From assembly GCA_048887225.1 (NCBI GenBank), contig JBHLJY010000001.1, forward strand, positions 100,335 through 164,334: a stretch of 64,000 nt of DNA. Reading direction: 5' to 3'. The position numbers and the translations under genes are program-made. A model generated the notes under the pieces. That model saw only the letters and a program-made list of their open reading frames with translations, was not told the origin of the DNA and did not search any database. This document shows, one piece after another, positions 12,169 through 52,161 of this stretch; within the stretch, counting starts at the first letter, position 1; the number at the start of each line of letters is the position of its first letter. This DNA is from Candidatus Hodarchaeota archaeon (GTDB taxonomy: Archaea; Asgardarchaeota; Lokiarchaeia; Sigyniarchaeales; SOKP01).

Positions 12169-12693
12169 ATGACTACTTATGACTATACGTTTAAGATCTT
12201 GTTGTTAGGCGATGCTTCAGTGGGAAAAACTTCGTTCACTAAGAGGTATTGCTATAATGTCTTCAATCCTAGCGAACGTTTGACGATAGGAGTCGATTTT
12301 CACGTAAAAACCATCGAGTTGCATAATAAAAAAATAAAATTACAAATTTGGGACGTTGGTGGAGAAGAGCGTTTTAGATTCCTGCTACCTACGTATTGCC
12401 TTGGCGCGAACGCGGCGTTTCTGTTGTATGATATTACGAGAGCTCCCACTTTAGATAATATACCAGAATGGACTTCTATAGTAAGGGAAAAGGGAGGCTC
12501 AATCCCTATTATGTTAGTTGGTTCAAAAGTCGATCTTGCTGAATCTCAGCGGGAAATTCCTACAGAACATGGTGTTCAAATTGCCGAGAAAAATAATTTT
12601 TCTGATTTTGTCGAGATTTCAGCAAAAGAAAATCTTAACGTTAACAATGCCTTTAAAGATCTAACTGAGTTTACTATTCAAAATATGAAATAA
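12169..12693 (+). CDS. Rab-like small GTPase (Ras superfamily)
   Basis: 174 aa. Motifs: G1 GDASVGKT, switch I TIGVDF, G3 KLQIWDVGGEERFRF, YDIT, G4 GSKVD, G5 SAK. There is no C-terminal Cys prenylation motif. Confidence 0.9.
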   Translation: MTTYDYTFKILLLGDASVGKTSFTKRYCYNVFNPSERLTIGVDFHVKTIELHNKKIKLQIWDVGGEERFRFLLPTYCLGANAAFLLYDITRAPTLDNIPEWTSIVREKGGSIPIMLVGSKVDLAESQREIPTEHGVQIAEKNNFSDFVEISAKENLNVNNAFKDLTEFTIQNMK

Positions 12694-12712: not shown

Positions 12713-13678
12713 ATGACCACACAAGACGAATTTATTCAAATATCGAATTTATTCAATTCATTAGGCATAATTGAAAAAGGTATTGAACGAGTTTATCATT
12801 ATTTGTTAAAAAATAAAAGAATTGATAATTTAAAAGAAGTCTGTGATCAGTATGATCTATCTTTAAAAAGAGGTTATAAAATCTGTTCTGTATTGAACGA
12901 TTTAGAATTAGTTCAAATTTACGATAGACCAATGAAAGTCAATTTAACAACTCCTCTTGTCTCGATTTGGCAAAAATTGATCAACAAGCGTATAGAAGCC
13001 TTGAAATATGAATTTGAGGACGAAAAGCAGCGATGTTCTGTTTATCTTGACGAATTTATTAAACAATATAATTTGAAATCCTTAGAGGCTCCACAAGAGC
13101 CTGTAGAATTGCTTCTTTTCGATATTAAAAAAATCGATGAGATGTATTATCCATTTTTAACCCGCAGTGAATGTAAAATTGCGGCAGGTATTAGATACGA
13201 AAATCCATTAATTTCTTTCATCAGGACCAATTCGATAGAAGAGATCGGAAAGAACTTAAAAAAGTCTATAATAGAAAGTATGAATAAAATTAAAGAAAAC
13301 CTCAGTAATATTAATATAAAAGTTGTTTTTAATAACGAGTTAATTATTGAATTGCTAACAAGTAAAGAATTTGCGGTTTTATACGAACAAATCGAACCTG
13401 TTGAATTTGAATTTAAAAGCCTTAAAGTTCATATAACAGAAGAACACTTTAGTAATTTTATTTTAACCGATGAAGAGTTAATCCAGCCAAGTTTCGATCC
13501 TACCAACAAGCTAATGGGTTCTTTTATATCTCGCAACGAAAATATTTATCACATTTTTTATGCTAAATTTAACGAGTTATTTGAAAAAGGAATTCCGATA
13601 AATAATTTTATCTCAATATCTGATATTTCAATTAATTCCCTATCGGAAAAACAAACATTTACCTTGTGTTTATTGTAA
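12713..13678 (+). CDS. TrmB-family winged-helix transcriptional regulator-like protein
   Basis: 321 aa, 19 nt after the GTPase stop. The N-terminus (LGIIEKGIERVYHYLLKNKRIDNLKEVCDQYDLSLKRGYKICSVLNDLELV) fits the TrmB wHTH. A coiled segment and a C-terminal domain follow. Confidence 0.6.
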   Translation: MTTQDEFIQISNLFNSLGIIEKGIERVYHYLLKNKRIDNLKEVCDQYDLSLKRGYKICSVLNDLELVQIYDRPMKVNLTTPLVSIWQKLINKRIEALKYEFEDEKQRCSVYLDEFIKQYNLKSLEAPQEPVELLLFDIKKIDEMYYPFLTRSECKIAAGIRYENPLISFIRTNSIEEIGKNLKKSIIESMNKIKENLSNINIKVVFNNELIIELLTSKEFAVLYEQIEPVEFEFKSLKVHITEEHFSNFILTDEELIQPSFDPTNKLMGSFISRNENIYHIFYAKFNELFEKGIPINNFISISDISINSLSEKQTFTLCLL

Positions 13679-17448: not shown

Positions 17449-18333
17449 ATGAAACGCAGATATAAAATTATTATTGAACTTCTGCTAATTATAATTCTTG
17501 CTTATGTTGGATATTGGTTCTACTTTTATTCTGGTTTAAATCAAATCTTAATTAATTTAATTTTATTAAATATTTTAATTTATATCGTACGCACTTTTCT
17601 TATTAATTTTGTAAACGCAATAATAAAAAATCGCATATTTAAATTCACATTTTCTCTTATTGTTAATCTTATTTGGATTATATTTCTATTTACACTATTA
17701 TTTTTCATCTCACCTACATTCACAATTTCAATTATTTCTTTCTTAATCATAGCAATCTCTTTAACATTTCAAGATGTTATCAACAATATTGCTTCAGGCC
17801 TTATGATAATCTCGAAAGAGGATGTTGAAATTGGTGATTTAGTGGAAATTAATGGTATACAAGGAATAATAAAGGAAATAAATCTAAATTATACAGTTAT
17901 AGAAGATTTTGATGGAACTTTAACATATATTCCTAATAGAATAGTTTACAATGCGTCAGTGGTTAAATTTACGCATAGAAGATTAAAAATAGGTAAATCA
18001 GCAGATGAAAGAAGAAAGTTAATGAGATACGTTAAGGATTTTAGCAAATTTCTTTCACGTGGAAAAAAATTAACAAACTATACTAAAATTGTTGAAATTA
18101 CATCGGCTGTAAATCCTGATGAATTAGAAGCTCTATTATCCTCCGTTTTCGATAAATATCAGCCAATCTTTGGAATAAGACCCGATTATGTAATAGAAAA
18201 AACAGCTTTGGATAGATGTGTGATAACATTACTAGTCATGTCAAAAGAGCCAATTTTGGTTATTAAATACTTAGATAATTTCTTAAAAGATATCGTTTAT
18301 AAATTATATTCTAATAAAATCGCTGGGGGATAA
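17449..18333 (+). CDS. mechanosensitive ion channel (MscS family)
   Basis: 294 aa with N-terminal TM helices, then NIASGLMIISKEDVEIGDLVEINGIQGIIKEINLNYTVIEDFDGTLTYIPN, which is the MscS pore/beta domain. Confidence 0.8.
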   Translation: MKRRYKIIIELLLIIILAYVGYWFYFYSGLNQILINLILLNILIYIVRTFLINFVNAIIKNRIFKFTFSLIVNLIWIIFLFTLLFFISPTFTISIISFLIIAISLTFQDVINNIASGLMIISKEDVEIGDLVEINGIQGIIKEINLNYTVIEDFDGTLTYIPNRIVYNASVVKFTHRRLKIGKSADERRKLMRYVKDFSKFLSRGKKLTNYTKIVEITSAVNPDELEALLSSVFDKYQPIFGIRPDYVIEKTALDRCVITLLVMSKEPILVIKYLDNFLKDIVYKLYSNKIAGG

Positions 18334-18384
18334 CATAATTTAAAATTAGGTGATAAATTGAAAAAAAAAGAGGTTCCGTATTAA

Positions 18385-19257
18385 ATGGCACTTTTTAATT
18401 CTGATATAGAAGCAATTATATATATCATAATCATTGGCATAACTTTATTCATCATAAGTAAAACCGCAACATATCTCATGAGACATGTTAAAAAAATATC
18501 TATAAAGACAGAGAATAAAATCTCATTCATATTGAGTCTTATTTTTTTTGTAATCATAGTTTATTTAGTTATTGAAGGATTTCCTTCATTTGAGCAAATT
18601 GATCCGACATACGCAGCAATTCTTACCGGTGCCATTAGCACGGCTTTAGCATTTGCCTCTAGTGGAGTTTTCAAAAATTTGGTGGCAGGAATTGTTTTAA
18701 TGTTTGTGGGGCCATTTGATATTGGAGATATTGTAAAAGTTGAAGATAATAAAGGAATCATACGGCATATTACTCTCTCTAAAACAATATTAGAAACGTT
18801 TGATGGAAAATTTATTGAAATCTCAAATACAGAAGTTTTCTCATCTTCTATTGTAAATTATACAAAAAAGTTATATAAAGTTCGTAATTTTGAACAATTC
18901 TTGAAAAAAATTCAAACCCCTCAGGTTAAAGCAATGGCGGAATTAAAGGAATTGGACGAGACGTATTTAAGAAAATTATTTGAAGATTGTAAAAAAATTC
19001 GTAATCCGATAATTCATAAATATACATTTAGAATGGAATATCCTATAGAACGATTTCGTAAGAAAATGGAGGAAACTCATGAATTATGTCTAAAATATAG
19101 AGAAAATTTTGGAGCACGTCCATGGTACGATATTGTAAATTTTGGAGCTGAAATTCACGTTAAATTTACAATATTAACATTAGATTCCAATACAATTCTT
19201 GAAGATCAACCGAAATTTGCCCATGATCTCTATAAAATTATACTTCAACATAATTAA
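18385..19257 (+). CDS. mechanosensitive ion channel (MscS family), second tandem copy
   Basis: 290 aa. NLVAGIVLMFVGPFDIGDIVKVEDNKGIIRHITLSKTILETFDGKFIEISN matches the MscS core. Confidence 0.8.
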   Translation: MALFNSDIEAIIYIIIIGITLFIISKTATYLMRHVKKISIKTENKISFILSLIFFVIIVYLVIEGFPSFEQIDPTYAAILTGAISTALAFASSGVFKNLVAGIVLMFVGPFDIGDIVKVEDNKGIIRHITLSKTILETFDGKFIEISNTEVFSSSIVNYTKKLYKVRNFEQFLKKIQTPQVKAMAELKELDETYLRKLFEDCKKIRNPIIHKYTFRMEYPIERFRKKMEETHELCLKYRENFGARPWYDIVNFGAEIHVKFTILTLDSNTILEDQPKFAHDLYKIILQHN

Positions 19258-19957: not shown

Positions 19958-21745
19958 TTATGCTGGAATTAAAACAATAAAATTAGAACCTTTCTTATAA
20001 TCATCTTTTATTCTATTGTCTATCCAGATTTTTCCATTATAACTGTCTATTAGTTGTTTTACAAGTGATAATCCAATTCCCATACCTCTGGTCGAGTTTT
20101 CATCGTTGCTTCTCCGCTGAAAAATTGCTACTTTTCTTTCATCATGTATTCCTACACCATTATCAATAAATTCAATTTTACAATATTTTTTATTCTCTAA
20201 TTGCATCTCAGAAATTCTTATTTGAATTTCTATTACTAGATTAATATTATGTCTTACTGAATTCATTAAGATATTTTCGAAAAGATCTAAAATAAGCTCG
20301 TTCGCTATTGCATAATGATCTTCTTCAATTGCCTCTACATTTATATGGAGGTTTCGATTTTGATAAATTTCGTCAATAAATACAATTGCATCCATTAAAT
20401 TTTTATTAATGTTAACTAACTCTAATGGCATTTCAGTTTCTTCGAGTTTAGACAATTTAATAACATTCGAAACAAGTTTTGAACCTCTGAAAACATTTTC
20501 TGTTATAGAACTTAAAAAATCCTTTTTGTCTTCGAACATTTCTGGCCTTTTTTTAGATAATTTATACAATTCTACGGAAGATTTTATTGATTGAAGTATG
20601 TTATTCATGTCATGAGCAATTAGTTCTTTATAAAAATTCGCACGGTTATATGCCTCTCGGTATCTTTTTTCTGATTCCTTAAATTTTTGTTCCGCTTTTT
20701 TTCGCTCAGTAATATCCCTTCCAATCGCTACAATTAGAAGATTACCATCAAAACTCCTAAAAGTTTTTCCAGTATATTCAAATGGAATAGTGCGACCTTC
20801 TTTTGTAATAAGAGACATTTCAACAGTTGTTTCTCCCGTGCTTAATGCCTTTTGTGTTGCTTCTGCTGCTTTCTTTAAATCTTCCTCGCTATAATAAGAA
20901 TCAGGAGCTTTCAGTGAAGCTATCTCATCATCAGTATAGCCAGCAACTTTGCGAAAAGCCTCATTCCACCTAATTGCTTTGCCAGTTTCGGGTTCAAAAA
21001 CAAAAATTGTATCGATTGATGTATTTAAAATATTATCAGTAAATTCTTTTACGTTTTTTAAAGCTTCCTCTGAGATTATTCGTTCTGTGATGTCAATTCC
21101 ATAAATATTTATATATTTTTCTTCTTGAATTGGTGTAATATTAAATGTATAAATTCGATCATTTAGTCCTATTTCTATAATTTTAGTAGAGTTTTTTGAA
21201 ATTACACTATTAACGCCTTCCATTAATAGATATGGAATTTTTTTACCTTCGGTTATATTAAATAATTTTTTACCAGCTTCATTGATATACAAGATTTTTT
21301 CACTATCAACTCTTAAGACGGGGTTTGGATTTTCAGAAGGAAACCTTGCAAGATCGGCAATTTTTTTTTCAGATTTTTTGCGCCCTGAGATATCTATAAC
21401 CATTGAACGTGATTCAAGTACATTTCCATTATTATCTATGATTGGATTTACTGATAAACTAATCCAGATAATATCCCCATTTCTATGTTTAAATTGTAAT
21501 TCTTCGTCTTTTATTTGCTTACTTTCTAAGAATCTTTTAAAAAGCCTCTTCGCTTTCTGTAAACCATTCTCTGTGTTAGCATATAAATCAAAAACTTTCA
21601 TATTTAAGAGTTCTTCTTTACTATAACCTAAAAGTCTTTCTGCTGCTTTATTACACCTTATAATTGATTTATCAGGGCTTATAGAGAAATAGGCATTTGG
21701 AGCTTCTTCATATAGATCTTGATATTTATTCTTCGATTCTTTCAA
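19958..21745 (-). CDS. PAS-domain sensor histidine kinase
   Basis: 595 aa with a TTG start. It has several PAS modules, the H-box ELIAHDMNNILQSI, and a HATPase_c region (NSVRHN...DNGVGI...GMGIGLSLV). Confidence 0.85.
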   Translation of the reverse strand: MKESKNKYQDLYEEAPNAYFSISPDKSIIRCNKAAERLLGYSKEELLNMKVFDLYANTENGLQKAKRLFKRFLESKQIKDEELQFKHRNGDIIWISLSVNPIIDNNGNVLESRSMVIDISGRKKSEKKIADLARFPSENPNPVLRVDSEKILYINEAGKKLFNITEGKKIPYLLMEGVNSVISKNSTKIIEIGLNDRIYTFNITPIQEEKYINIYGIDITERIISEEALKNVKEFTDNILNTSIDTIFVFEPETGKAIRWNEAFRKVAGYTDDEIASLKAPDSYYSEEDLKKAAEATQKALSTGETTVEMSLITKEGRTIPFEYTGKTFRSFDGNLLIVAIGRDITERKKAEQKFKESEKRYREAYNRANFYKELIAHDMNNILQSIKSSVELYKLSKKRPEMFEDKKDFLSSITENVFRGSKLVSNVIKLSKLEETEMPLELVNINKNLMDAIVFIDEIYQNRNLHINVEAIEEDHYAIANELILDLFENILMNSVRHNINLVIEIQIRISEMQLENKKYCKIEFIDNGVGIHDERKVAIFQRRSNDENSTRGMGIGLSLVKQLIDSYNGKIWIDNRIKDDYKKGSNFIVLIPA

Positions 21746-22152: not shown

Positions 22153-25100
22153 TTGAATGCTATAGAAAACCAGCTTAAGGAATTAAATAAAAAATTAATT
22201 GAATCAGAAGAGAAGTTTAGAGCTATTGCCGAACAATCAAATTTGGGTATTTGTATTCAGCAAGATGACAGGATTAAATATATAAATCAACGATTGGCAG
22301 ATTTAGTAGGATATACAATTGAAGAATTAAAAAGTTGGCAACCAAGAGAGTATGCAAAAGTAATTCATCCAGATGATAGGGAATATGCAATAGAACAAGG
22401 AAGAAAAAAACAGTTAGGGAGCAATAATGTTGATACTAATTATCAATTTCGTTTAATTAAAAGCACTGGTGAAATTATATGGGTTGATAATTATTCAAAT
22501 GCAATTATTTACAAAGATAGCCTAGCTAATTTAGCTACTATTATTGATATTACAGAAAAAAAAAAGGCAGAGATAGAGTTGAAAGAATCCGAAGAAAAAT
22601 TTAGATTAATTTCAGAAAAAGCAGATGACTTAATTTCAATTTTAGATAAAAAAATGAAATTTGAATATGTTAATGAACCAGTTCATTATCGATTGATGGG
22701 ATATTCAAGAGAAGATCTAATTGGAAAAACTGGGTTAGAACTTATACATCCAGAAGATCGTGCAAAAGTTTTACAAGAATTTAATAAAGCTTTTAAAACC
22801 GGTGAAGCAATCGCAGAGGCAAGAATTAGAAATAAAGATGGGCAATATATCTGGACAGAAACTAAAGGTAAATCTTTTATCGATAAAAATAATGAACCAA
22901 AAGCTCTATTAATCACAAGAATTATTACAGAGCGTAAAAATGATGAAAAAAAATTAAAAGAATCCGAAGAAAAATTTAAAGCTCTTTTTAAAGGAGGACC
23001 AGTTCCTACATATGCATGGCAAAAAGTAAGAAACGATTTTAAATTAATTGATTATAACAATGCCGCCGAAGAGTTTACCTATAGAAATGTGAGAAATTAT
23101 TTAGGATTAAAAGCTTCTGAGATGTATAAAGATCGACCAGATATCTTAAAAGATTTACATAGTTGCTTTGACACAAAATTCAATATTACTCGTGAGATGA
23201 AATATTACATCAACATTTTAAAAGAAGAAAAAGATCTTATAGTGAAATATAGTTTTATTCCTCCAGATCTGGTCTTAGTTCATACAGAAGATATAACTCG
23301 TAGAAAAATAGCCGAAGAAAATTTGAAAGAATCAGAAGAAAAATATCGATTAATTATTGAAAATGCTCATGAAGGAATCTGGGCTATTGATAAAGACGCC
23401 AATATTACTTTTGTTAATCCAAGAATGGCAGAAATATTGGGTTATACTACTGATGAAATGCTTGGAAAGCATTTATTTGATTTTATGGATGAAAATCTTA
23501 TAGAAATTGCTAAACAATATCTTGAACGCAGAAAAAGAGGTATAAAAGAACAACACGATTTTGAGTTTCTTCGAAAAAATGGAACAAAAATTACAACAAG
23601 CTTGAATACCTCGCCTATTATAGATAAAAACGGGAATTATGTTGGAGCTGTTGCGTTCATAACTGATATAACTGTTCGCAGGAAAGCAGAATATGAATTA
23701 AAGGAATCCGAGGAAAAATATCGACATTTATTTGAAAACTCACCATTCATTATAGTAATACTGGATTTAGAGGCTAATATTATAGATCTAAACTCAGCCG
23801 TCAATAATTTTCTCACTTCGCGTACGAAAAATGATTTAATCGGAAAAAATATAAGAGAAATCTTTTCTATACGTGAAGAGGAAAAACCAATAATCCCAAT
23901 AATACTAGATCAAATAAAAAGAACGGTTAATGGAGAAACTACAGAACCATTTGAATTTCCTTTAATAAGGTCAGATGAAAGTATTCAATGGATACGTTTC
24001 CAAAGTTCTTTAATAAATTTAGAAGATCAAAACTTAATACAATTTATAGGACAAGATATTACCAAGCGGAAGAAAGATAGAGATGAATTACGTTTACATA
24101 GTCAAATCATGAAAAATATGGCTGAGGGCGTGTGTCTTATTCGAGCCGACAATGAAACATTTGTCTATATAAATCCCAGATTTAAGAAGCTATTTGGTTA
24201 TGAACCTGATGAGTTGATAGGTAAGCATGTTTCAATTATAAATGCTCCAACTGCCATAAGTCCTATGGAAACAGCAAAAAAAATAACAGATATCGTGGAA
24301 AGAACAGGAGAGTGGCATGGGGAAGTTAAAAATATCAAGAAAGATGGTACAACATTATTTTGTCATGCTAATATCTCAACCTTTAAACATCCTGAGTATG
24401 GTAAAGTTTATGTCAACGTCATTATTGATATGACCGAAAGCAAGAAATCAGAACAAAAATTAGAAGAATCAGAAAAAAAATATCGCTATATTTTCGAGAA
24501 CTCACGCAATGCTATACTTTTAATTAATCCTGATGGAATAATTATTGATTGTAATCCAAGTACAGAAAGAATAACTGGATACAAGAAAACAGAACTAATA
24601 AACAGGAATTTTAAAGATCTCTCAGTAATTCGTAAAAAATACTTAAATTTGAGTGTTAAACTTTTTAGAAAACTTTTCGATGGAGAGATTGTACATCGTG
24701 TAGATGTAGAATTTATAAAAAAAGGTGGTAGTTTGATCTGGGTGAGTATACACGCATCTATAGTTAATATCAGCGAAGAGAAATTTATGATTGTGCTAAT
24801 TTATGATATCACAGAGCGTAAAAGAGCCGAATTTCTTGTTGAAGAAGAATTAAAAAAATTGAAAGAATTAGAGCAAATTCGAAAAAATCTAATTCTTAGA
24901 GTATCACACGAGCTTAAAACACCATTGATACCTGTATGTAGTGGAACTGAATTTCTTTTGTATAAATATGAAAAACAATTAGAAGAAGAAGTAAGCGATA
25001 TACTTAAAATGATAGAAAAAGGAGGCAAACGGTTGAAAATGCTGGTGAATAAATTACTTGATGTATCTCGATTAGAATATGATATGCTTTTATTAGAAAA

Positions 25101-25575
25101 ACAAACAAAGGATTTATGTGAAATAATAAAAGAATGTTGTAATGACATGATGCATTTAATTAAAGACAGGGGTCTTACACTTAATCTAGATATTCCTAAC
25201 AATTTTTATCTCGATATAGACGCTATGAGAGTTGAACAAGTAATTATAAATCTATTGTCAAACGCTATAAAAAATACTCCACCTAAAGGAAAAATTTCTA
25301 TTGGTTTGCGAGAAGAGAATAATTGGGCTACATTAGCTGTAACTGATACGGGAGTTGGTTTTACTAAGGAAGAAATGAGTAAAGTTTTCACTAGATTCGG
25401 TAAAATAGAAAGACTTGATAAAGGACTTGAATATATGGATATCCAAGGTTCAGGATTAGGACTATATCTCTCTAAAGAAATTGTTGATTTACATGGAGGT
25501 AAAATCTGGGCAGCGTCTGAAGGTCGAAATAAGGGTTCTACATTTTACTTTTCTCTGCCTATCATTAAAAAATAG
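22153..25575 (+). CDS. multi-PAS sensor histidine kinase
   Basis: 1140 aa with a TTG start. About seven PAS modules are joined by recurring LKESEEK(F/Y)R linkers. It has the H-box RVSHELKTPL and a HATPase_c region (LLSNAIKNTP...DTGVGF...GSGLGLYLSKEIV). Confidence 0.9.
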   Translation: MNAIENQLKELNKKLIESEEKFRAIAEQSNLGICIQQDDRIKYINQRLADLVGYTIEELKSWQPREYAKVIHPDDREYAIEQGRKKQLGSNNVDTNYQFRLIKSTGEIIWVDNYSNAIIYKDSLANLATIIDITEKKKAEIELKESEEKFRLISEKADDLISILDKKMKFEYVNEPVHYRLMGYSREDLIGKTGLELIHPEDRAKVLQEFNKAFKTGEAIAEARIRNKDGQYIWTETKGKSFIDKNNEPKALLITRIITERKNDEKKLKESEEKFKALFKGGPVPTYAWQKVRNDFKLIDYNNAAEEFTYRNVRNYLGLKASEMYKDRPDILKDLHSCFDTKFNITREMKYYINILKEEKDLIVKYSFIPPDLVLVHTEDITRRKIAEENLKESEEKYRLIIENAHEGIWAIDKDANITFVNPRMAEILGYTTDEMLGKHLFDFMDENLIEIAKQYLERRKRGIKEQHDFEFLRKNGTKITTSLNTSPIIDKNGNYVGAVAFITDITVRRKAEYELKESEEKYRHLFENSPFIIVILDLEANIIDLNSAVNNFLTSRTKNDLIGKNIREIFSIREEEKPIIPIILDQIKRTVNGETTEPFEFPLIRSDESIQWIRFQSSLINLEDQNLIQFIGQDITKRKKDRDELRLHSQIMKNMAEGVCLIRADNETFVYINPRFKKLFGYEPDELIGKHVSIINAPTAISPMETAKKITDIVERTGEWHGEVKNIKKDGTTLFCHANISTFKHPEYGKVYVNVIIDMTESKKSEQKLEESEKKYRYIFENSRNAILLINPDGIIIDCNPSTERITGYKKTELINRNFKDLSVIRKKYLNLSVKLFRKLFDGEIVHRVDVEFIKKGGSLIWVSIHASIVNISEEKFMIVLIYDITERKRAEFLVEEELKKLKELEQIRKNLILRVSHELKTPLIPVCSGTEFLLYKYEKQLEEEVSDILKMIEKGGKRLKMLVNKLLDVSRLEYDMLLLEKQTKDLCEIIKECCNDMMHLIKDRGLTLNLDIPNNFYLDIDAMRVEQVIINLLSNAIKNTPPKGKISIGLREENNWATLAVTDTGVGFTKEEMSKVFTRFGKIERLDKGLEYMDIQGSGLGLYLSKEIVDLHGGKIWAASEGRNKGSTFYFSLPIIKK

Positions 25576-35897: not shown

Positions 35898-37001
35898 TTA
35901 ATTAGTCGTAAGTTTTGGGGGCGGAACAAACACCTTTCTAGGTTCGATTCTTACTAGCGTCATTGCTTTCTCAGGGCAGAAATGAGCACAGATACCACAT
36001 CCAATACATCTATCTTCGTTTACAACGGCAAGAGTATCTTCAAGCTCTACAGCCTCTGCGTTACACATTTCAACGCATGTACCGCACCCTATACAGTCAT
36101 CTTCGTTCACATTTGCCACATGGGAAGCCAAACTCATTAAAGGGATCCCACCAGCATAATGGATGTCAAAAGTTCCACAGCAACATTTACAACAATTACA
36201 CATTCCGTCAAGTTCTCTTTCTGGATCCAGATGAACGTGAAATCCTTTATGAACAAGGCCGTCATCTTCGCATTGTTTCAATATTGTTTTTGCTTCTTCT
36301 TTTGAAATTTGTTCGGCAAAACCTTCTGAGATGAGAAATGAAGCGGCTTTACCAAAAGAGAAACAATTTTTTCTATCTTTTGTCTTTTTACAAGGATCGT
36401 TAAGAAGATCTTTTCGATGTCTACAATAACAAGTCATTAATCCTATAGGATCATATTTTTCTATAACTTTGGAGATTTCTTCAAAAGTAAACACTTTTTC
36501 TTCCTTTATTTCGACTTCTTCTTCAACAGGAATAATTCTATCAATTGGATTAGCGTTCTTTAACGCTTTCATTATTCGATCGTAATTACCTTGAGTCATT
36601 TCGACTAACTCTTTAAAAAATTTATCGAATAATTTTGCTAATTTCTTCTCTTTTTCTCCCGTTTCACCTCGCATTAAAGTAAACTCAAGTACACCAGGAA
36701 AGAAAGGCGTTAATCGATACACCATTATTCCTGTACTTCTACTAGGAATTCCAGTAATTGCCCCAATGTGCATAAGATCTTTTAACATTTTCATAAGCGA
36801 ATCTTCGTCTAAATTGCTTATAGTTTTTACTTCATCAATGTTATATGATGATTTTTTAAACAACAGAAGGAATTTTGCTTGTTCTTCGGTCATTATTGTT
36901 TTCATTACCTCAATAACAGTGTCATTTATAGGGAATGGAAGTTTCGCAGCGTTGATAAAATTACTCGCAACCTCATACCAAATTTTTTCGGACATTTTCA
37001 A
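35898..37001 (-). CDS. Fe-S protein with C-terminal 2x[4Fe-4S] ferredoxin domain
   Basis: 367 aa. It has CIGCGTCVEMC and CIGCGICAHFCP, plus the upstream Cys clusters CYCRHRK...C and CNCCKCCC. It is a paralogue of the 39523-40371 gene. Confidence 0.7.
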   Translation of the reverse strand: MKMSEKIWYEVASNFINAAKLPFPINDTVIEVMKTIMTEEQAKFLLLFKKSSYNIDEVKTISNLDEDSLMKMLKDLMHIGAITGIPSRSTGIMVYRLTPFFPGVLEFTLMRGETGEKEKKLAKLFDKFFKELVEMTQGNYDRIMKALKNANPIDRIIPVEEEVEIKEEKVFTFEEISKVIEKYDPIGLMTCYCRHRKDLLNDPCKKTKDRKNCFSFGKAASFLISEGFAEQISKEEAKTILKQCEDDGLVHKGFHVHLDPERELDGMCNCCKCCCGTFDIHYAGGIPLMSLASHVANVNEDDCIGCGTCVEMCNAEAVELEDTLAVVNEDRCIGCGICAHFCPEKAMTLVRIEPRKVFVPPPKLTTN

Positions 37002-37195: not shown

Positions 37196-38548
37196 CTATT
37201 TTAAATTATTTTGAATTTTTTGAATCCTAAGATCTAGTTTCTGTAATTGTTTATCATGTTTTCCATCATCATTTTCAGCAGATAAAATATTCTTAATTTG
37301 AAACAAATATTTTAGCGCAATTACATAGTCTTTTTTCTTTTCTGATTTGTTTGCTTGCTCCATGGCGAATTTTAATTCAACTTCTTTGTTGAGTTTAATA
37401 ATTTCTAAAATTTTAAACGAGATTTTACCCATCTCCACATCTAAATTGAATTCTCTTGCGTAATTAAGTGCCTTTTGATATTCAGTTAACGCCTCTTGAT
37501 ATGCAGCATTTTTTTCTGCGATTTCACCTTTCTTCACTGAAGAATGAATTTTTATATGAGCTTCTTCAAGACTCATATCATGACATTCAAAAATTATATC
37601 TTCCATATCTCTTATTTCCATGATTTTTTCAATTACATATTCCCTACTTTGTTTTTCTTGTCTTTCAGATTCTAATTCTTCCTTTTGATATTCAAAATTT
37701 TGCCAAATAATGATATTTTCTCTTATCATCTGATATATATTCCAAAGAATTTCTTCATTCGATATCACTCCTAATAGTTTTGAAGTTGTATCTATAAGTG
37801 GTGATATAAAAAAATATGTATCTTCTTTTAATAAATCCTTAGCACATTCATATATGGCTTTTTGAACTATAGAAAAATTTTCGATTTTATTTGGTGGTAT
37901 TTGAGTAGAGAGGGTGTGAGGATTAATCAGAGTTATTTCAAAAGTTTTTCCTACTAAGCTTCTAACTGGGTCTAGTATACTTAAATCACTTTTTTGCTCA
38001 AATTCCTTTAATTCATCTTGATAGTTATATTCACATATATTCGTGAAATTTAAGAGTAATTCTCTTAAATTATTTGAAGCTCTTCTATCAAGAATTAAAC
38101 AAATTCTGCATAATTCACCATTACACAAAAGAATATGAAAATTTTTATACTCAAACTCGTAAAATTTTTTATCTGGATTAATTTTATCTATTAACGTTAG
38201 TTCTTCGGACGAAAATGCTATATTTGCATGGATAAAACCAGATATTAGAGTAGCATCAATAGGTAAATCGCTTACAGCCATATTAAATGCGGGTACGCCT
38301 CCTTTAGTAAGAATTATTACATGTCTTATACTTGTTATATCTTGGTACTTCCTCCAAATATGTTTATATAATATTTTTTTTCTTTTTTGTTCTGAATCTT
38401 GTTCAATAGCTTCAATAATATCCACTAAAAAATTAGCGTCGCTAAATTTTTTCGATAAACACCTAAAGCAGTTTTCTGGATATCCCTCTTGACAAACCGA
38501 TTTGTCCACTCCGCAATCAAATCCCGAGATCAATTTAAAATATGTCAA
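37196..38548 (-). CDS. hypothetical protein: N-terminal Cys cluster, longin/roadblock-like alpha/beta domain (IDATLISGF), C-terminal TPR-like/coiled region
   Basis: 450 aa with a TTG start 7 nt after an AGGTGG SD. It has a CX6CX7CX2C cluster at residues 12-30. Residues about 75-185 share a domain with the C-terminus of the 48970-51324 protein. The C-terminus (AAYQEALTEYQKALNYA) is TPR-like. Confidence 0.6.
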   Translation of the reverse strand: MTYFKLISGFDCGVDKSVCQEGYPENCFRCLSKKFSDANFLVDIIEAIEQDSEQKRKKILYKHIWRKYQDITSIRHVIILTKGGVPAFNMAVSDLPIDATLISGFIHANIAFSSEELTLIDKINPDKKFYEFEYKNFHILLCNGELCRICLILDRRASNNLRELLLNFTNICEYNYQDELKEFEQKSDLSILDPVRSLVGKTFEITLINPHTLSTQIPPNKIENFSIVQKAIYECAKDLLKEDTYFFISPLIDTTSKLLGVISNEEILWNIYQMIRENIIIWQNFEYQKEELESERQEKQSREYVIEKIMEIRDMEDIIFECHDMSLEEAHIKIHSSVKKGEIAEKNAAYQEALTEYQKALNYAREFNLDVEMGKISFKILEIIKLNKEVELKFAMEQANKSEKKKDYVIALKYLFQIKNILSAENDDGKHDKQLQKLDLRIQKIQNNLK

Positions 38549-38812
38549 ATAACCACCTTATGCTTAAAATTAAATATCTAATTACTTAATAATTTAATAA
38601 AAGTTTTTTTTATACTGTATCTAATAAAAAAATCCATATATTTAATTCTTAATAGTTATATTAGCATCTTTTAAAATTTTAATGAAAAATTCCCTAGGAC
38701 CTGATTCTCGCCTCTATTAAGCTGTTAATGCTTTCACCTTGAAAAAAATATAAATATAGAGCTAGATAAACTTTAAGTAATACTCATTTTACAAAAAGAG
38801 GAGATACTGAAA

Positions 38813-39328
38813 TTGAAAAAAAAATTACAATTTGGATTTATGTTGACAATTTTTTTAGTCTCAGTTGTAACAGCAATTATTTTGTTCTCAAGCGCAAATA
38901 CAAACATCACTAATAATTCTGCTATTGATGATGAAGCAAAATTAACAGTAGAAGCTGAAATCGACAATAGAAAGGAGCCAAACACGGCACTAACTGAACC
39001 ACAAGAGGGTGAAGTTGACGTTGTATTTAATCTTACAGTTGATGTTGGATGTAAGATAGGACTTGGAAATGATAAAAAAAAAATAAATCCATCCAAGCAA
39101 TGGCAATATCATTTAGAATTCATAAATATTCCCGGAATATACGATACAGAAGCTAAAGAGATTAAAGATTTGGACATAATTATTGAAGAGTTCGTTGAAA
39201 ATTGGCTTGAAAATAATGTTAAGAATAAGGGAAGAAAAAAGAAGATGCTTGAACGATATGTTATCATTGATTATGAGGTTATAATGGAATTGCTACCGGA
39301 GCCACCAGAGCCACCAGGACCCGCATAA
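38813..39328 (+). CDS. small membrane-anchored/secreted hypothetical protein
   Basis: 171 aa with a TTG start after a GAGGAGA SD. It has an N-terminal hydrophobic helix and a C-terminal PEPPEPPGP tail. Confidence 0.5.
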   Translation: MKKKLQFGFMLTIFLVSVVTAIILFSSANTNITNNSAIDDEAKLTVEAEIDNRKEPNTALTEPQEGEVDVVFNLTVDVGCKIGLGNDKKKINPSKQWQYHLEFINIPGIYDTEAKEIKDLDIIIEEFVENWLENNVKNKGRKKKMLERYVIIDYEVIMELLPEPPEPPGPA

Positions 39329-39522: not shown

Positions 39523-40371
39523 TTGTGTAAAATCTGTAGAATGCATGCTGAGGGTCATGGTAAGTGGTATTTAAATCCCAAGGGCTATTCAGAGGAATTA
39601 TTTTATAAATTATCATTACTTGATCGTATTTTAGGCAGAAAATCCAAAAAAGTCAGAGTTGCGCTTAAAGACAATGATTCGTCTTGGTTTCCTCTTGGTA
39701 TTTCAAAACTTATGGATCAGGTTGACTTGGTGAGTAAGCCTCTAATTGGCCGCTTAGTTAGAATGATCGGAAATCGTGTCGCTCTCCGTTCTCACTCAGG
39801 TCAGGTTGTTCCATTAGAAGATGCGTTTAAAATTGTGGATTTGAGTTACGATCACGTTGTTTACCCTTGCATGTGTAAAAGACTTTTTAAAGGTCATGAC
39901 GAATATAAATGCCTTAATTTTGCTCCACTCACAGAAGAAAATAGAAAAAGTCCGAGAGCTTGGAAGGAAAAACATCTCAGTCCTGAAGAAGCAAAAGCAA
40001 AGTTAGAAGAATTCTCAGAAAAAGGATACGTTCATGCGGTTTTCTGGTGGTATGGAATGCCCCAGGCAGTTTGCATCTGTAACTGTGATAACAAGTATTG
40101 TTTTGCGGCGAGACCTAGATTGTGGTATGATGTAGAAAATACATACAGAAGGGCAGAGTATGTAGCCAAAGTTAATGGTGATGAATGTATCAGTTGCGGC
40201 AATTGTATAGAACGCTGCCAATTTGGGGCAATATCCTTAGGAAAGGACGACCGGGCTATAATAGAACCAACAATTTGCTTTGGTTGTGGGCAATGCAGAG
40301 TTGTATGCGAGCAGAACGCCATAAAGCTTCTTGATAGAAACACTCATTTAGTAGCGCAAAAAATTTGGTAA
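39523..40371 (+). CDS. Fe-S protein with C-terminal 2x[4Fe-4S] ferredoxin domain
   Basis: 282 aa with a TTG start after a GGTGGGA SD. It carries CISCGNCIERC and CFGCGQCRVVCE, plus the upstream Cys clusters CMCKR...C and CICNCDNKYC. Confidence 0.7.
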   Translation: MCKICRMHAEGHGKWYLNPKGYSEELFYKLSLLDRILGRKSKKVRVALKDNDSSWFPLGISKLMDQVDLVSKPLIGRLVRMIGNRVALRSHSGQVVPLEDAFKIVDLSYDHVVYPCMCKRLFKGHDEYKCLNFAPLTEENRKSPRAWKEKHLSPEEAKAKLEEFSEKGYVHAVFWWYGMPQAVCICNCDNKYCFAARPRLWYDVENTYRRAEYVAKVNGDECISCGNCIERCQFGAISLGKDDRAIIEPTICFGCGQCRVVCEQNAIKLLDRNTHLVAQKIW

Positions 40372-48969: not shown

Positions 48970-51324
48970 TTAGAAAGAGGTTGTAGTAGTTGGTTGAAAG
49001 ATTTTTTTTTTGATTAAATCTAAGATAATTTCAACATCACGCGGCTTAAACTTTTGTTCAGAGATAAGAAAAGTAGAATGGATATAATTTAAATTAAAAT
49101 CTTTCATGATTTGTTTTGCTTTATCTATCATTGCTCTTTCGCCTATAGTAAGTTTGACATCTATTTTCTCCACAACTTTTAATGGGGAAACAAACGATGT
49201 GTGGAGGTGTTCTTCAATTAACTCACGTATCCCTGCAAATTGACTTTTAATCCCCTTAAAACGCTTTATTTCTTCGCCAAATCTACTTTCAATACTATAC
49301 GATAAAGCTGTAACTGATCTTAACAATTCTTCTGAGGGACGTTCTTTCAAAATAAGTATTATTCTAAAATTTTTAAATTCTGACATTAAAACCTTTGATT
49401 CTTTATATTCTAACGAAATAGTCTGAGACTGATCGAAAGATTTCGTAAGTTCAATTCCAAAGGCACGAATAGCTTCCAAAAATCCGGATATCAATGTGGC
49501 ATCAATCTCTTTCCCAGCGATATATTGCTCATAAATATTTAATCCACTTTTCTTCTCTATTACCATAATATAATTTAAATTAATTATATCTCTAATTTTA
49601 TTGGTGAGATTTTCTCTACGTTCATCGCGTGTTCTCTTTAACATTTTAACACTTTTATAAGATATAATACTTCCTGCTGAAATTATACCACCAATTAAAA
49701 CAATAGCAAAAATTAACAGTGGATCAATACCTCCAGCTTTTTCTGTATCATCACCATTATCGTCTCCAATAATTAAAATGGAAACACCAGTAATCTGAAA
49801 CGATTGTAATTGAACACCTGCATCAGTACTATTCGTCCAAAACACGAAGCATTTCCAGGTTCCAGAAATAGCTGCAGAAGATAACGTTAAGTTAAAATCA
49901 AATTCAGATGTTGTTGTTCTTTCTTTTGTCTCTTGGTGGATTTTAATTGATCTACTATCGATTAAAATAAATGTATATTTACCTAATTTTGCTGGAGCCT
50001 TTACAACAAATCCTAAGTCATCACCTGCATTATAATCTGTTTTTGAAACGGTTAATGCAATTGGAAGTTCATTTGAATTAGCGGTAATTATCAATTGCCT
50101 TCCTCCGATTGTGGAATTATTACCTATAAATAATGTATTTCCATCATTTAAAATGGACGGTTCTGATGTTACATTTATAACTCCGTCAAATACACTAACA
50201 TGGAACCAATTATCGGGATAATCATAAAATAGTGAATAATTATATCCAAATCTATTAAAAGGTGGTTCAAACGTCCAAATATTATCTTGATTTTCCTTAA
50301 TATAAACCGTTCCATAACATGATAATGAGTTATTTAGTTTGATATAATAACTTAAATTAAGGAGCAATACATCAGATGTATTGTGTATAAATTGAATATT
50401 TAGACTAGAACTATTGGGAAAGTAATCTGTAAATGTTAAGGTTAAATTACCGGTTCCAAATATGATACCATCTTGGATAGAATAATCTGTTTCGTTTATT
50501 TCAGCCTTCAGATCAAGATTTGAGGGTTTAACAGTTCCGAGTGTTTGTGATTCTAATTTATAGAGAAACGTTTCATTGACTATTCCCGCTTCCCATCCAA
50601 TTCCGTTCCATCTCCAATTTAACAAATCTGGATATTTAGGAAAAATATCATTATAATACCAAAAAAAAGTTCCAGGATCGGGTGGAGGACCCGTCATTTC
50701 TGTACAATTAAATACTAACGAATAATACCCCGGAGAAAGAATTACTGGTGTAGAAAAAGTATGATCCCACCATAGTGGATTCGCTGATGTTACATTCAAA
50801 GAAGCATTAGCGTAAAGGATATTGTTTGGTCTTTGAGTTCCTGGATTATAACCATAGATTTGAAGATAACATTGAGCATCCGGAACTTTTGTTCTTAAAG
50901 CATATATTTTAACACCATATATTTTAGTAGAGGCCGTAAGATTAATCTGAACAGCATATGCTTTATCAGTAAATTTTATCTGTTTTGAGGAGATTGGGAT
51001 ATCCTCAATTACCTTAATCCCTCTTTGGAAAAAGATATTACTTATATCAAGGTGTAGTTTTGAAACATTCCATGTTGACCTTCCTAAATTTATATCAAGG
51101 AAATTGATGTTTTCCTCTGTTCCATTATTTTCCGCAATTTCAACTAAAGAAAAATTTTTAGTTATGGTTAAAGCTTCATTACTATATACGACTTGAGAGT
51201 TACTTGGATTTTTTTTTTCTATTGGAAACTCTGAATTTTTTGAATTAATCCCTGAAAAAACCAGTGCACTAAATAGAAAAATTAATCCTAAAAGAAAAAC
51301 AAAACCCAATCTCTTATTTGTCAT
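48970..51324 (-). CDS. single-pass surface glycoprotein candidate with cytosolic longin/roadblock-like domain (IDATLISGF)
   Basis: 784 aa. It has an N-terminal signal/anchor helix and a roughly 520-aa ectodomain with about 19 NxS/T sequons. A TM helix (IDPLLIFAIVLIGGIISAGSIISY) and a basic stop-transfer segment follow. The roughly 230-aa cytosolic region is homologous to residues 75-185 of the 37196-38548 protein. Confidence 0.7.
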   Translation of the reverse strand: MTNKRLGFVFLLGLIFLFSALVFSGINSKNSEFPIEKKNPSNSQVVYSNEALTITKNFSLVEIAENNGTEENINFLDINLGRSTWNVSKLHLDISNIFFQRGIKVIEDIPISSKQIKFTDKAYAVQINLTASTKIYGVKIYALRTKVPDAQCYLQIYGYNPGTQRPNNILYANASLNVTSANPLWWDHTFSTPVILSPGYYSLVFNCTEMTGPPPDPGTFFWYYNDIFPKYPDLLNWRWNGIGWEAGIVNETFLYKLESQTLGTVKPSNLDLKAEINETDYSIQDGIIFGTGNLTLTFTDYFPNSSSLNIQFIHNTSDVLLLNLSYYIKLNNSLSCYGTVYIKENQDNIWTFEPPFNRFGYNYSLFYDYPDNWFHVSVFDGVINVTSEPSILNDGNTLFIGNNSTIGGRQLIITANSNELPIALTVSKTDYNAGDDLGFVVKAPAKLGKYTFILIDSRSIKIHQETKERTTTSEFDFNLTLSSAAISGTWKCFVFWTNSTDAGVQLQSFQITGVSILIIGDDNGDDTEKAGGIDPLLIFAIVLIGGIISAGSIISYKSVKMLKRTRDERRENLTNKIRDIINLNYIMVIEKKSGLNIYEQYIAGKEIDATLISGFLEAIRAFGIELTKSFDQSQTISLEYKESKVLMSEFKNFRIILILKERPSEELLRSVTALSYSIESRFGEEIKRFKGIKSQFAGIRELIEEHLHTSFVSPLKVVEKIDVKLTIGERAMIDKAKQIMKDFNLNYIHSTFLISEQKFKPRDVEIILDLIKKKIFQPTTTTSF

Positions 51325-51576
51325 TTTTTTAATAATTTTTTAGGAATTTAACAATAATGATAATCATTTAGACTCAGATCAAAATTAATTAGTTTAATTA
51401 TTTAAATTTTTATCGTTGGGAATCAAATTTAGTATTTGATTTAATGGTTTTTTATTAGAAAAACTTGAAATCGTAATCATCATAATTGAACATAAATTAT
51501 ACCCATATCAAAACTAAATAAAACCAATTATTTAAGCTTTGATTCTATCATTTAAAAAATAAAAAAAAATAATGTA

Positions 51577-52161
51577 TTAACTCTTAAGTTTTTGGAGCAA
51601 GAAAGCAAAATTTTTTCCTAAATTTTTAAAAGTTTCTAGTCCTTCTTCGTCTTTCTTGATGTCTTCTGGATCCCTTACATTAGGATTCACCCCTAAATTC
51701 CAATAGCTAGAACCAACAACAAACATTTGATTAATTAAGAAAAAATAATTTAAACTCGAGAACACATGAGTTGCTCCTGCTCGCCTCACAGCAACTACTG
51801 CTGCGCCGACTTTATGTTTAAGAAGGTCCCCATTAACTTTACTTACAAGACCAGCTCTTTCAATTAAAGCTTTCATTCTAGTAGAAGTATCTGCAAAGTA
51901 TGTAGGAGAGCCTAATATTATTCCATCTGCTTCAAGCATCTTTTCAATATATTCATTCATTTTATCAGTTTTGACTGCACATCTCTTATCTTGATTTTGT
52001 TTACATCGATAACAAGAGATACATCCTTGGAGTTTATCCATACCAATCCAATTATAATCCACTTCAACTCCAGCAGCCTTCAATTCGTCCATTACAATAT
52101 TTAAACATTGATGGGTAACCCCTTCATTCCTAGGACTTCCATTAAACAAAGCAACTTTCAT
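51577..52161 (-). CDS. iron-sulfur flavoprotein / NADPH-dependent FMN reductase family
   Basis: 194 aa. It carries FNGSPRNEGVT, a compact CX2CX2CX7C motif (CISCYRCKQNQDKRC), and GSPTYFADTS. Confidence 0.75.
   Translation of the reverse strand: MKVALFNGSPRNEGVTHQCLNIVMDELKAAGVEVDYNWIGMDKLQGCISCYRCKQNQDKRCAVKTDKMNEYIEKMLEADGIILGSPTYFADTSTRMKALIERAGLVSKVNGDLLKHKVGAAVVAVRRAGATHVFSSLNYFFLINQMFVVGSSYWNLGVNPNVRDPEDIKKDEEGLETFKNLGKNFAFLLQKLKS

Follow-up and report, generated by a model that had tools for sequence, protein, structure and literature searches.

The gene examined here is a 450-amino-acid open reading frame (ORF) on a 64,000-nucleotide stretch (hereafter the window) of the Candidatus Hodarchaeota archaeon contig JBHLJY010000001.1 (assembly GCA_048887225.1). 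Its product, referred to as the target, combines four conserved cysteines (Cys4), a divergent roadblock (RB) domain, a winged-helix-like (WH) subdomain, a charged linker and a helical tail resembling tetratricopeptide repeats (TPR) or MIT domains (Table 1). Roadblock folds act in the regulation of small GTPases in organisms ranging from bacteria to humans. As modelled, the module that the target shares with a 784-aa membrane protein of the same window is a highly divergent roadblock by fold and not by detectable sequence, and its RB domain appears rigidly joined to the WH-like subdomain.

Homologues of the target are numerous (72 at E<=1e-80, nearly all full-length, with 49-90% identity), and all those carrying an organism name derive from Asgard (Promethearchaeota) metagenome-assembled genomes (MAGs), where they are annotated as "hypothetical". 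Judged from these alignments, the ORF is most simply taken as a real, selected and conserved Asgard gene. The TTG start and the AGGTGG Shine-Dalgarno (SD) motif proposed in an earlier reading of the window's letters (the original prediction) are both present, the motif lying 4 nt before the TTG, and the start site is further supported because the N-terminus MT[YH]FKL is kept across 29 aligned orthologues. The original prediction had also recognised this domain combination from no described family, and no curated family matches it: Pfam searches with the whole protein, with its four separate regions at E<=10 and with 50 family members returned no family for the target, NCBIfam gave no match, and a single-sequence search of PDB found no match to the module. 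The architecture is likewise not described in the available literature, though work on Asgard roadblocks is abundant; about 130 roadblock-superfamily Asgard clusters of orthologous genes (asCOGs) have been published, and the family could already be among them.

The fold was obtained from an AlphaFold2 (AF2) model of residues 50-290, built on a 50-sequence alignment pooling the soluble family with membrane-protein tails, which gave a predicted local distance difference test score (pLDDT) of 88.5 and a predicted template modelling score (pTM) of 0.81 for the two-domain RB-WH unit; the full-length model of the target was of moderate confidence (pLDDT 70). The elements of the domain model (helix 2-23, strands 25-32 and 37-42, helix 50-65, strands 80-85, 88-94 and 98-104 and helix 110-126, at pLDDT ~90) follow the roadblock order alpha-beta-beta-alpha-beta-beta-beta(-alpha). 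When both AF2 models were compared with PDB by Foldseek, nearly all of the top 50 matches were roadblock proteins and a few were longins, led by Roadblock3 of Ca. Prometheoarchaeum (9jue), MglB (6hjm), LAMTOR2/3 (MP1/p14; 6ehp) and dynein LC7 (3l7h), with E from 4e-5 upwards, probabilities of 0.99-1.0 and target-normalised TM-scores of 0.5-0.65. This comparison, which the original prediction had proposed, thus found similarity to GTPase-regulatory roadblock folds and supports at fold level its guess of a longin/roadblock module, with roadblock proteins ranked first. A longin identity was rejected, since a confident helix precedes beta1, the longin matches (AP2 sigma, COPI zeta, Mon1-Ccz1) rank below the roadblocks, and Pfam longin models matched faintly and without recurrence in single members (Intu_longin_1, E=0.049; Fuz_longin_1, E=0.036). 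Helix alpha2 carries the motif LxSGFxxAxxxF, which is conserved in both the soluble family and the membrane-protein tails; in 243 diverse members, G104, A108 and F112 are kept in 99%, F105 in 96% and L101 in 94%.

The sharing of this module with the 784-aa protein, already noticed in the original prediction, is supported by BLASTP (E=5e-10 over target residues 67-242) and by the family profile (E=2.4e-19 over positions 62-251), which found it in no further ORF of the window. The proposed extent of residues 75-185 did not hold, because these matches show the shared unit to be about twice that length, covering residues ~53-285. The target itself has no transmembrane (TM) segment by hydropathy and is taken as soluble, whereas the 784-aa protein is single-pass and its module is placed on the cytoplasmic side because one TM segment is followed by a basic stretch and then by the module; a soluble protein and a membrane partner had been expected.

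An exhaustive HMMER search over 1.84 billion representatives, clustered at 50% identity, extended the module to 1,609 clusters at E<=1e-3, 302 of them at E<=1e-30. In most of the best 150 clusters the match lies at the extreme C-terminus of proteins of 750-1,750 aa; those large proteins that were tested lack Pfam domains save occasional bacterial Ig-like domains, and the named ones are Asgard hypotheticals. Judged from sequence, very many single-pass membrane proteins of Asgard archaea end in an RB-WH unit as their cytoplasmic tail.

Some of these membrane proteins could be compared directly. A flavin mononucleotide (FMN) reductase gene lies directly upstream of a module-bearing membrane protein both in the window (48970-52161) and at locus L088 (1814-6587), and the L088 reductase is 70% identical to that at 51577-52161 of the window. 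The TM segment and tail of the two membrane proteins are 49% identical (residues 1052-1289 and 536-778), and the ectodomains of these proteins of 1,291 and 784 aa, respectively, are unalignable; the two genes are apparently orthologous by position, the cytoplasmic tail having been conserved and the ectodomain being either replaced or hypervariable. At locus L087 (413-5090), two single-pass membrane proteins of 762 and 750 aa bear the module in tandem, which suggests a local duplication within the receptor-like family.

Beyond the RB domain, the WH-like subdomain has the AF2 order strand, helix, helix, bridge, helix, helix, strand at pLDDT >90, and four members in a Pfam scan of 50 gave faint matches to the APAF-1 WHD model. 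The second alpha/beta-looking region of the original prediction is therefore present as a region, but it is mostly helical, with short strands in a WH-like order. The charged segment said to follow it is also there, at low AF2 confidence.

The C-terminal tail comprises five confident helices in the full-length AF2 model (residues 327-449, pLDDT 82-90), and an alignment over both subfamilies of the family (see below) shows an internal repeat, AEKxxAYQxAxxEYxKAL followed by AEKxKDYINSIxYYQKAxKIL. Pfam TPR_2 matched the target tail at E=0.4 and 5 of 50 members, the best at E=0.21. Against designed consensus TPRs the tail profile gave independent E-values of 0.17-3 per repeat, the large summed scores reflecting many identical repeats, and against natural TPRs it gave E=0.19-0.95, the tail holding only about two units. 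The earlier description of a TPR-like C-terminus is thus upheld for the helices and for the resemblance to the consensus-TPR motif, but no single repeat is significant, and judged by its sequence the tail may fairly be labelled TPR-like at motif level. Pfam MIT reached E=0.05 at best in 3 of 50 members, which is below significance, and the archaeal Vps4-like MIT domain 2v6y matched weakly (E=1.2). These sub-threshold MIT signals are inseparable from TPR, and consensus TPRs score at least as well.

At the opposite end, the CX6CX7CX2C cluster had been placed correctly at residues 12-30. Its four cysteines are invariant in the 29-sequence alignment, occur in all 79 N-terminally complete members of both subfamilies with the spacing CX6CX6-7CX2C, and are also retained in more divergent clusters. 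Four conserved metal-ligand cysteines within a short span are characteristic of zinc ribbons and knuckles, and a Pfam scan of the region returned no zinc-finger and no Fe-S family match.

Table 1. Coordinates of the target gene, its predicted regions and the related features of the window.
Feature	Position	Strand	Details
Target ORF, complete gene with stop codon	37196..38548	minus	450 aa; Cys4 - roadblock - WH-like - charged linker - TPR/MIT-like tail
Shine-Dalgarno-like AGGTGG	38553..38558	minus	4 nt 5' of TTG start (38546-38548); read in sequence
N-terminal region, residues 1-52, putative metal site	38393..38548	minus	CX6CX7CX2C; C12, C19, C27, C30 = 38459-38515
Divergent RB domain (by predicted fold), residues ~53-186	37991..38392	minus	alpha-beta-beta-alpha-beta-beta-beta-alpha(-alpha); LxSGFxxAxxxF in helix alpha2
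Winged-helix-like helical subdomain, residues ~187-285, packed on RB	37694..37990	minus	AF2 element order
Charged low-confidence helical linker, residues ~286-322	37583..37693	minus	pLDDT 40-58; net charge -7
C-terminal TPR/MIT-like helical domain, residues ~323-450	37199..37582	minus	two three-helix units; motif AEKxxAYQxAxxEYxKAL
784-aa single-pass membrane protein, paralogue	48970..51324	minus	signal/anchor at the N-terminus; many N-x-S/T sequons in the ectodomain
TM segment of 784-aa protein, residues ~529-560	49645-49740	minus	hydropathy
Cytoplasmic RB-WH module of 784-aa protein, residues ~576-756	49057-49599	minus	BLASTP, profile
Ras-family small GTPase, 194 aa	40976..41560	minus	Pfam Ras E=1.6e-35; 2.4 kb from target
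Second Ras-family small GTPase, 174 aa	12169..12693	plus	Pfam Ras E=4.6e-46, phmmer; 25 kb from target

A scan with one genome per species yielded 80 loci of the full-length family, comprising subfamily A (the target orthologues; 16 loci, 53-72% identity) and subfamily B (paralogues; 64 loci, 31-38% identity). Positions 1-448 of the hidden Markov model were matched in both, indicating that the whole architecture is kept, and several MAGs hold one gene of each subfamily. Non-ATG starts occur in 12 of 15 subfamily-A loci (TTG in nine, GTG in three), with an SD-like motif in 10 of the 15; subfamily B, in contrast, starts with ATG in 59 of 59 loci, mostly without SD. All loci lie on Asgard-labelled contigs with one exception, a contig labelled "Candidatus Nanopelagicaceae bacterium" (L060; DATKTW010000013.1), on which a Ras gene adjoins the subfamily-B gene, as is typical of Asgard loci; this contig is probably a mis-binned Asgard one. 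A protein of ~437 aa, whose module occupies residues ~228-360 after an unassigned N-terminal half, recurs about 5 kb from subfamily-B genes (L025:1170-2480, L036:5135-6448, L039:3673-4998 and seven similar loci).

Within the window, the target, the 784-aa gene and the two Ras-like GTPase genes are set apart by unrelated metabolic genes. The target is flanked by genes for 4Fe-4S ferredoxin-domain proteins (35898-37001 and 39523-40371), with an aldehyde:ferredoxin oxidoreductase nearby, and in three orthologue loci on long contigs the neighbours are entirely different. Divergent from the target, a 171-aa ORF (38813-39328, plus strand) encodes a protein with a hydrophobic segment at its N-terminus and a Pro-rich stretch at the other end; neither Pfam nor PDB gave a match to it, and it is not kept as a neighbour of the orthologues. 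Another ORF without a Pfam or PDB match (321 aa; 12713-13678, plus strand) begins 20 bp after the GTPase gene at 12169-12693, with which it may share an operon. The window further holds divergent genes for multi-PAS histidine kinases of 595 and 1,140 aa (19958-21745, minus strand; 22153-25575, plus strand) and two tandem MscS-like channel genes (17449-19257).

Clustering of all neighbours in the 80 family loci placed GTPase genes beside some of the paralogues. In 9 of 61 loci, all of one sub-clade (67-93% identical), the subfamily-B gene is followed on the same strand by a Ras gene at a distance of 136-228 bp. Five further loci, of another sub-clade that is 50-59% identical to the first, have a Ras gene directly preceded by that of a stand-alone module protein of 143-155 aa. 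In these pairs (L049:6009-7069, L059:5425-6484, L051:6165-7319, L037:7358-8555 and L042:7253-8356), the module gene lies 96-218 bp upstream of a same-strand gene for a ~170-aa Ras-family GTPase, an arrangement like that of mglB and mglA, and the module proteins gave no Pfam Robl_LC7 match. Among four membrane-anchored members examined, one is followed by RagA-like and Arf-like GTPases: at L086 (6001-12163), the gene for a 1,447-aa membrane-anchored module protein precedes by 177 bp that of a Gtr1/RagA-like protein of 178 aa and then that of an Arf/Ras-like protein of 355 aa, all on the same strand, and this is the clearest receptor-then-GTPase arrangement among the loci examined. A ~590-aa protein that has a Ras domain at its N-terminus and a zinc ribbon at its C-terminus is also encoded a few kb downstream of subfamily-B genes in about 20 loci (for example L062:5551-7323).

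The reading that we favour, at a probability of about 0.5, is that the target is a soluble cytoplasmic scaffold or adaptor of an Asgard-specific, unannotated family, with an RB dimer platform, a partner-binding tail and a metal held by the Cys4 site. To our knowledge, every characterised roadblock protein (MglB, LAMTOR2/3, the Rag C-terminal domains, dynein LC7 and the Asgard RBs) dimerises, and it is because of this precedent that a dimer platform is proposed for the target. By analogy, two RB domains would pair along their alpha2/beta3 edges to form a two-fold platform, and the near-invariant motif of alpha2 is the predicted common dimer interface. Asgard RB proteins crystallise as dimers, RB and longin dimers serve as GTPase platforms, and the orientation in which small GTPases dock on roadblock dimers is conserved (PMC10933270). 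The platform would most likely dock a Ras-superfamily small GTPase and/or another RB-WH unit, which could be that of the subfamily-B paralogue or of a receptor tail, while the TPR/MIT-like tail is predicted to recruit a peptide or helix belonging to an additional partner. The metal at the Cys4 site would be structural zinc, an Fe-S cluster being less likely.

Several results weigh against this reading. At the sequence level, Pfam Robl_LC7 (PF03259) gave nothing at E<=10 for the isolated domain or in the 50 members, a profile search of PDB sequences retrieved no roadblock for the module, and HHalign of a 243-member module alignment against an Asgard Robl_LC7 alignment reached 25% probability (P=7.7e-4), aligning 30 columns in register over alpha1-beta1-beta2. 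Membership in Robl_LC7 by sequence was accordingly abandoned, and the roadblock call is one of fold because a sequence link is not demonstrable. The Cys region is modelled at low confidence (pLDDT <50 for residues 8-25 in the full-length model), and the WH-like and TPR/MIT-like assignments both consist of secondary-structure order plus sub-threshold matches. As for the genomic context, subfamily A has no recurrent neighbour and no GTPase within 3 kb in any of its 16 loci, GTPase density is 0.74 per 10 kb near family genes against 0.71 per 10 kb farther off, and the Ras adjacencies near paralogues are lineage-restricted. A conserved operon for subfamily A was rejected by this analysis of the 80 loci, and the apparent recurrence of Ras genes near paralogues is confined to certain lineages and not enriched over background density. 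The local "GTPase-platform module" of the original prediction is consequently not borne out, its genes being dispersed among metabolic genes with orthologue neighbourhoods that are not conserved. The GTPase link is weak for the family and unsupported for the target's own subfamily; the link consists of the fold and the suggestive, lineage-restricted adjacency seen in paralogues.

This absence of a GTPase association in subfamily A is what would be expected of a scaffold acting independently of GTPases, in which the RB-WH unit dimerises or binds cargo like dynein LC7, itself among the top fold matches, and the tail links it to another machine, for example of ESCRT-III type through interaction of a MIT domain with its MIM motif. 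The weak MIT signals of the tail point the same way, but they are non-significant and equalled or exceeded by consensus TPR; in addition, paralogues in two sub-clades adjoin Ras genes and no ESCRT genes were seen near any locus. We regard this explanation as possible, with a minor share of the probability.

A heterodimer of the soluble target with the cytoplasmic tail of the 784-aa protein through their RB domains, forming a joint platform for the two Ras-like GTPases of the window, had been suggested from the presence of the module in both. It is in keeping with the occurrence of the RB-WH unit in one soluble and one membrane-anchored protein, with the conservation of the alpha2 motif in both families and with the frequency of paralogous heterodimers among RB domains (PMC10933270). 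The four genes are nevertheless scattered among metabolic genes and show no synteny in orthologues, and nothing singles out the 784-aa protein as the partner because the module occurs in hundreds of membrane proteins. This specific pairing is therefore unlikely.

A transcription regulator, in which an N-terminal zinc ribbon and a winged helix-turn-helix (HTH) bind DNA and the RB domain senses or dimerises, would agree with the WH-like element order, the Cys4 cluster and a faint 14-residue match to "Transcriptional regulator SEHBP" (E=0.009), but no Pfam HTH family matches and the WH-like region is neutral to acidic; it is very improbable and was discarded because the putative recognition helix (262-280) has a net charge of -2 (family median -1) and hundreds of large surface proteins carry the RB-WH unit on a membrane-tethered tail. 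Very improbable, too, is a redox sensor whose Cys4 site carries an Fe-S cluster and is functionally tied to the flanking ferredoxin-type genes and the nearby oxidoreductase, as four invariant cysteines in an anaerobe might suggest, because those neighbours are conserved in none of the 16 orthologous loci, no Fe-S family matches, and the 19-residue span, which ends in a CxxC where a helix starts, bears a closer resemblance to a zinc knuckle.

The target belongs to a large branch of the roadblock fold in Asgard genomes that is invisible by sequence, being covered by neither Pfam nor NCBIfam models and linked by sequence to none of the solved structures. The branch takes two forms, namely two conserved soluble proteins of Cys4-RB-WH-TPR-like architecture and the cytoplasmic tails of hundreds of single-pass surface proteins, and censuses of Asgard roadblocks based on PF03259 would miss it because no member tested matches that model. 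Roadblock and longin platforms, together with small GTPases, are at the core of how eukaryotes define membrane identity and signal nutrient status, and no prokaryotes are more closely related to eukaryotes than the Asgard archaea. One speculative and, on balance, doubtful extension is that the RB-WH unit defines an Asgard receptor-adaptor system, in which surface proteins with hypervariable ectodomains carry a tethered RB platform and soluble subfamily-A and -B hubs pair with these tails or with each other, switching GTPases or recruiting TPR/MIT ligands. If true, membrane-anchored GTPase platforms such as Ragulator would have in this system a prokaryotic counterpart and possibly their forerunner, and if the tails couple extracellular domains to GTPase switches they would offer a concrete example of receptor-to-GTPase signalling before eukaryotes.

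Among known systems, the Asgard RBs (MKD1-RB, Thor-RB and Roadblock3, 9jue) give the best fold match to the target (E=4e-5, target-normalised TM-score 0.62-0.65), come from the same phylum and share the order alpha-beta-beta-alpha-beta-beta-beta-alpha with N- and C-terminal helices. They are, however, stand-alone single-domain proteins of ~120 aa recognised by Pfam Robl_LC7, whereas the RB domain of the target is undetectable by sequence and sits inside a 450-aa Cys4/WH/TPR-like architecture. MglB is the bacterial GTPase-activating protein (GAP) of the Ras-like GTPase MglA, and mglB precedes mglA. It matches the target in fold (6hjm, 3t1r and 6izw at E~5e-5, root-mean-square deviation ~4 A), and in some paralogue lineages the module gene directly precedes a Ras-like gene in the same manner; it differs in having no sequence similarity to the target, whose subfamily lacks a GTPase neighbour and which has extra domains. 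LAMTOR2/LAMTOR3 (p14/MP1) of Ragulator and the Rag C-terminal roadblocks also match in fold (6ehp, 6b9x, 3cpt) and share the concept of a membrane-anchored RB platform, although homology is not demonstrable by sequence and anchoring is through the lipidated subunit LAMTOR1 in Ragulator and through a covalent TM helix of their own in the target's paralogues. Longin subunits of guanine nucleotide exchange factors (GEFs) and GAPs and related complexes (Mon1-Ccz1, AP sigma/COPI zeta, NPRL2-like; 8c7g_C, 8jbe_C, 6uri_S, 5mc7) are lower-ranked matches, the target module having the N-terminal helix typical of roadblocks. In the tail, the motif (E/K)K.xDY..A(I/L).(Y)YQKAL equals the helix A/B signature of consensus TPRs and AF2 predicts helical hairpins, but there are only two units and no Pfam TPR or MIT model matches at threshold. 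The closest known proteins are thus the Asgard RBs, MglB and LAMTOR2/3, with the same fold and probably the same logic, and what sets the family apart is an RB domain fused to a WH-like subdomain, invisible by sequence and used in either soluble or membrane-anchored form.

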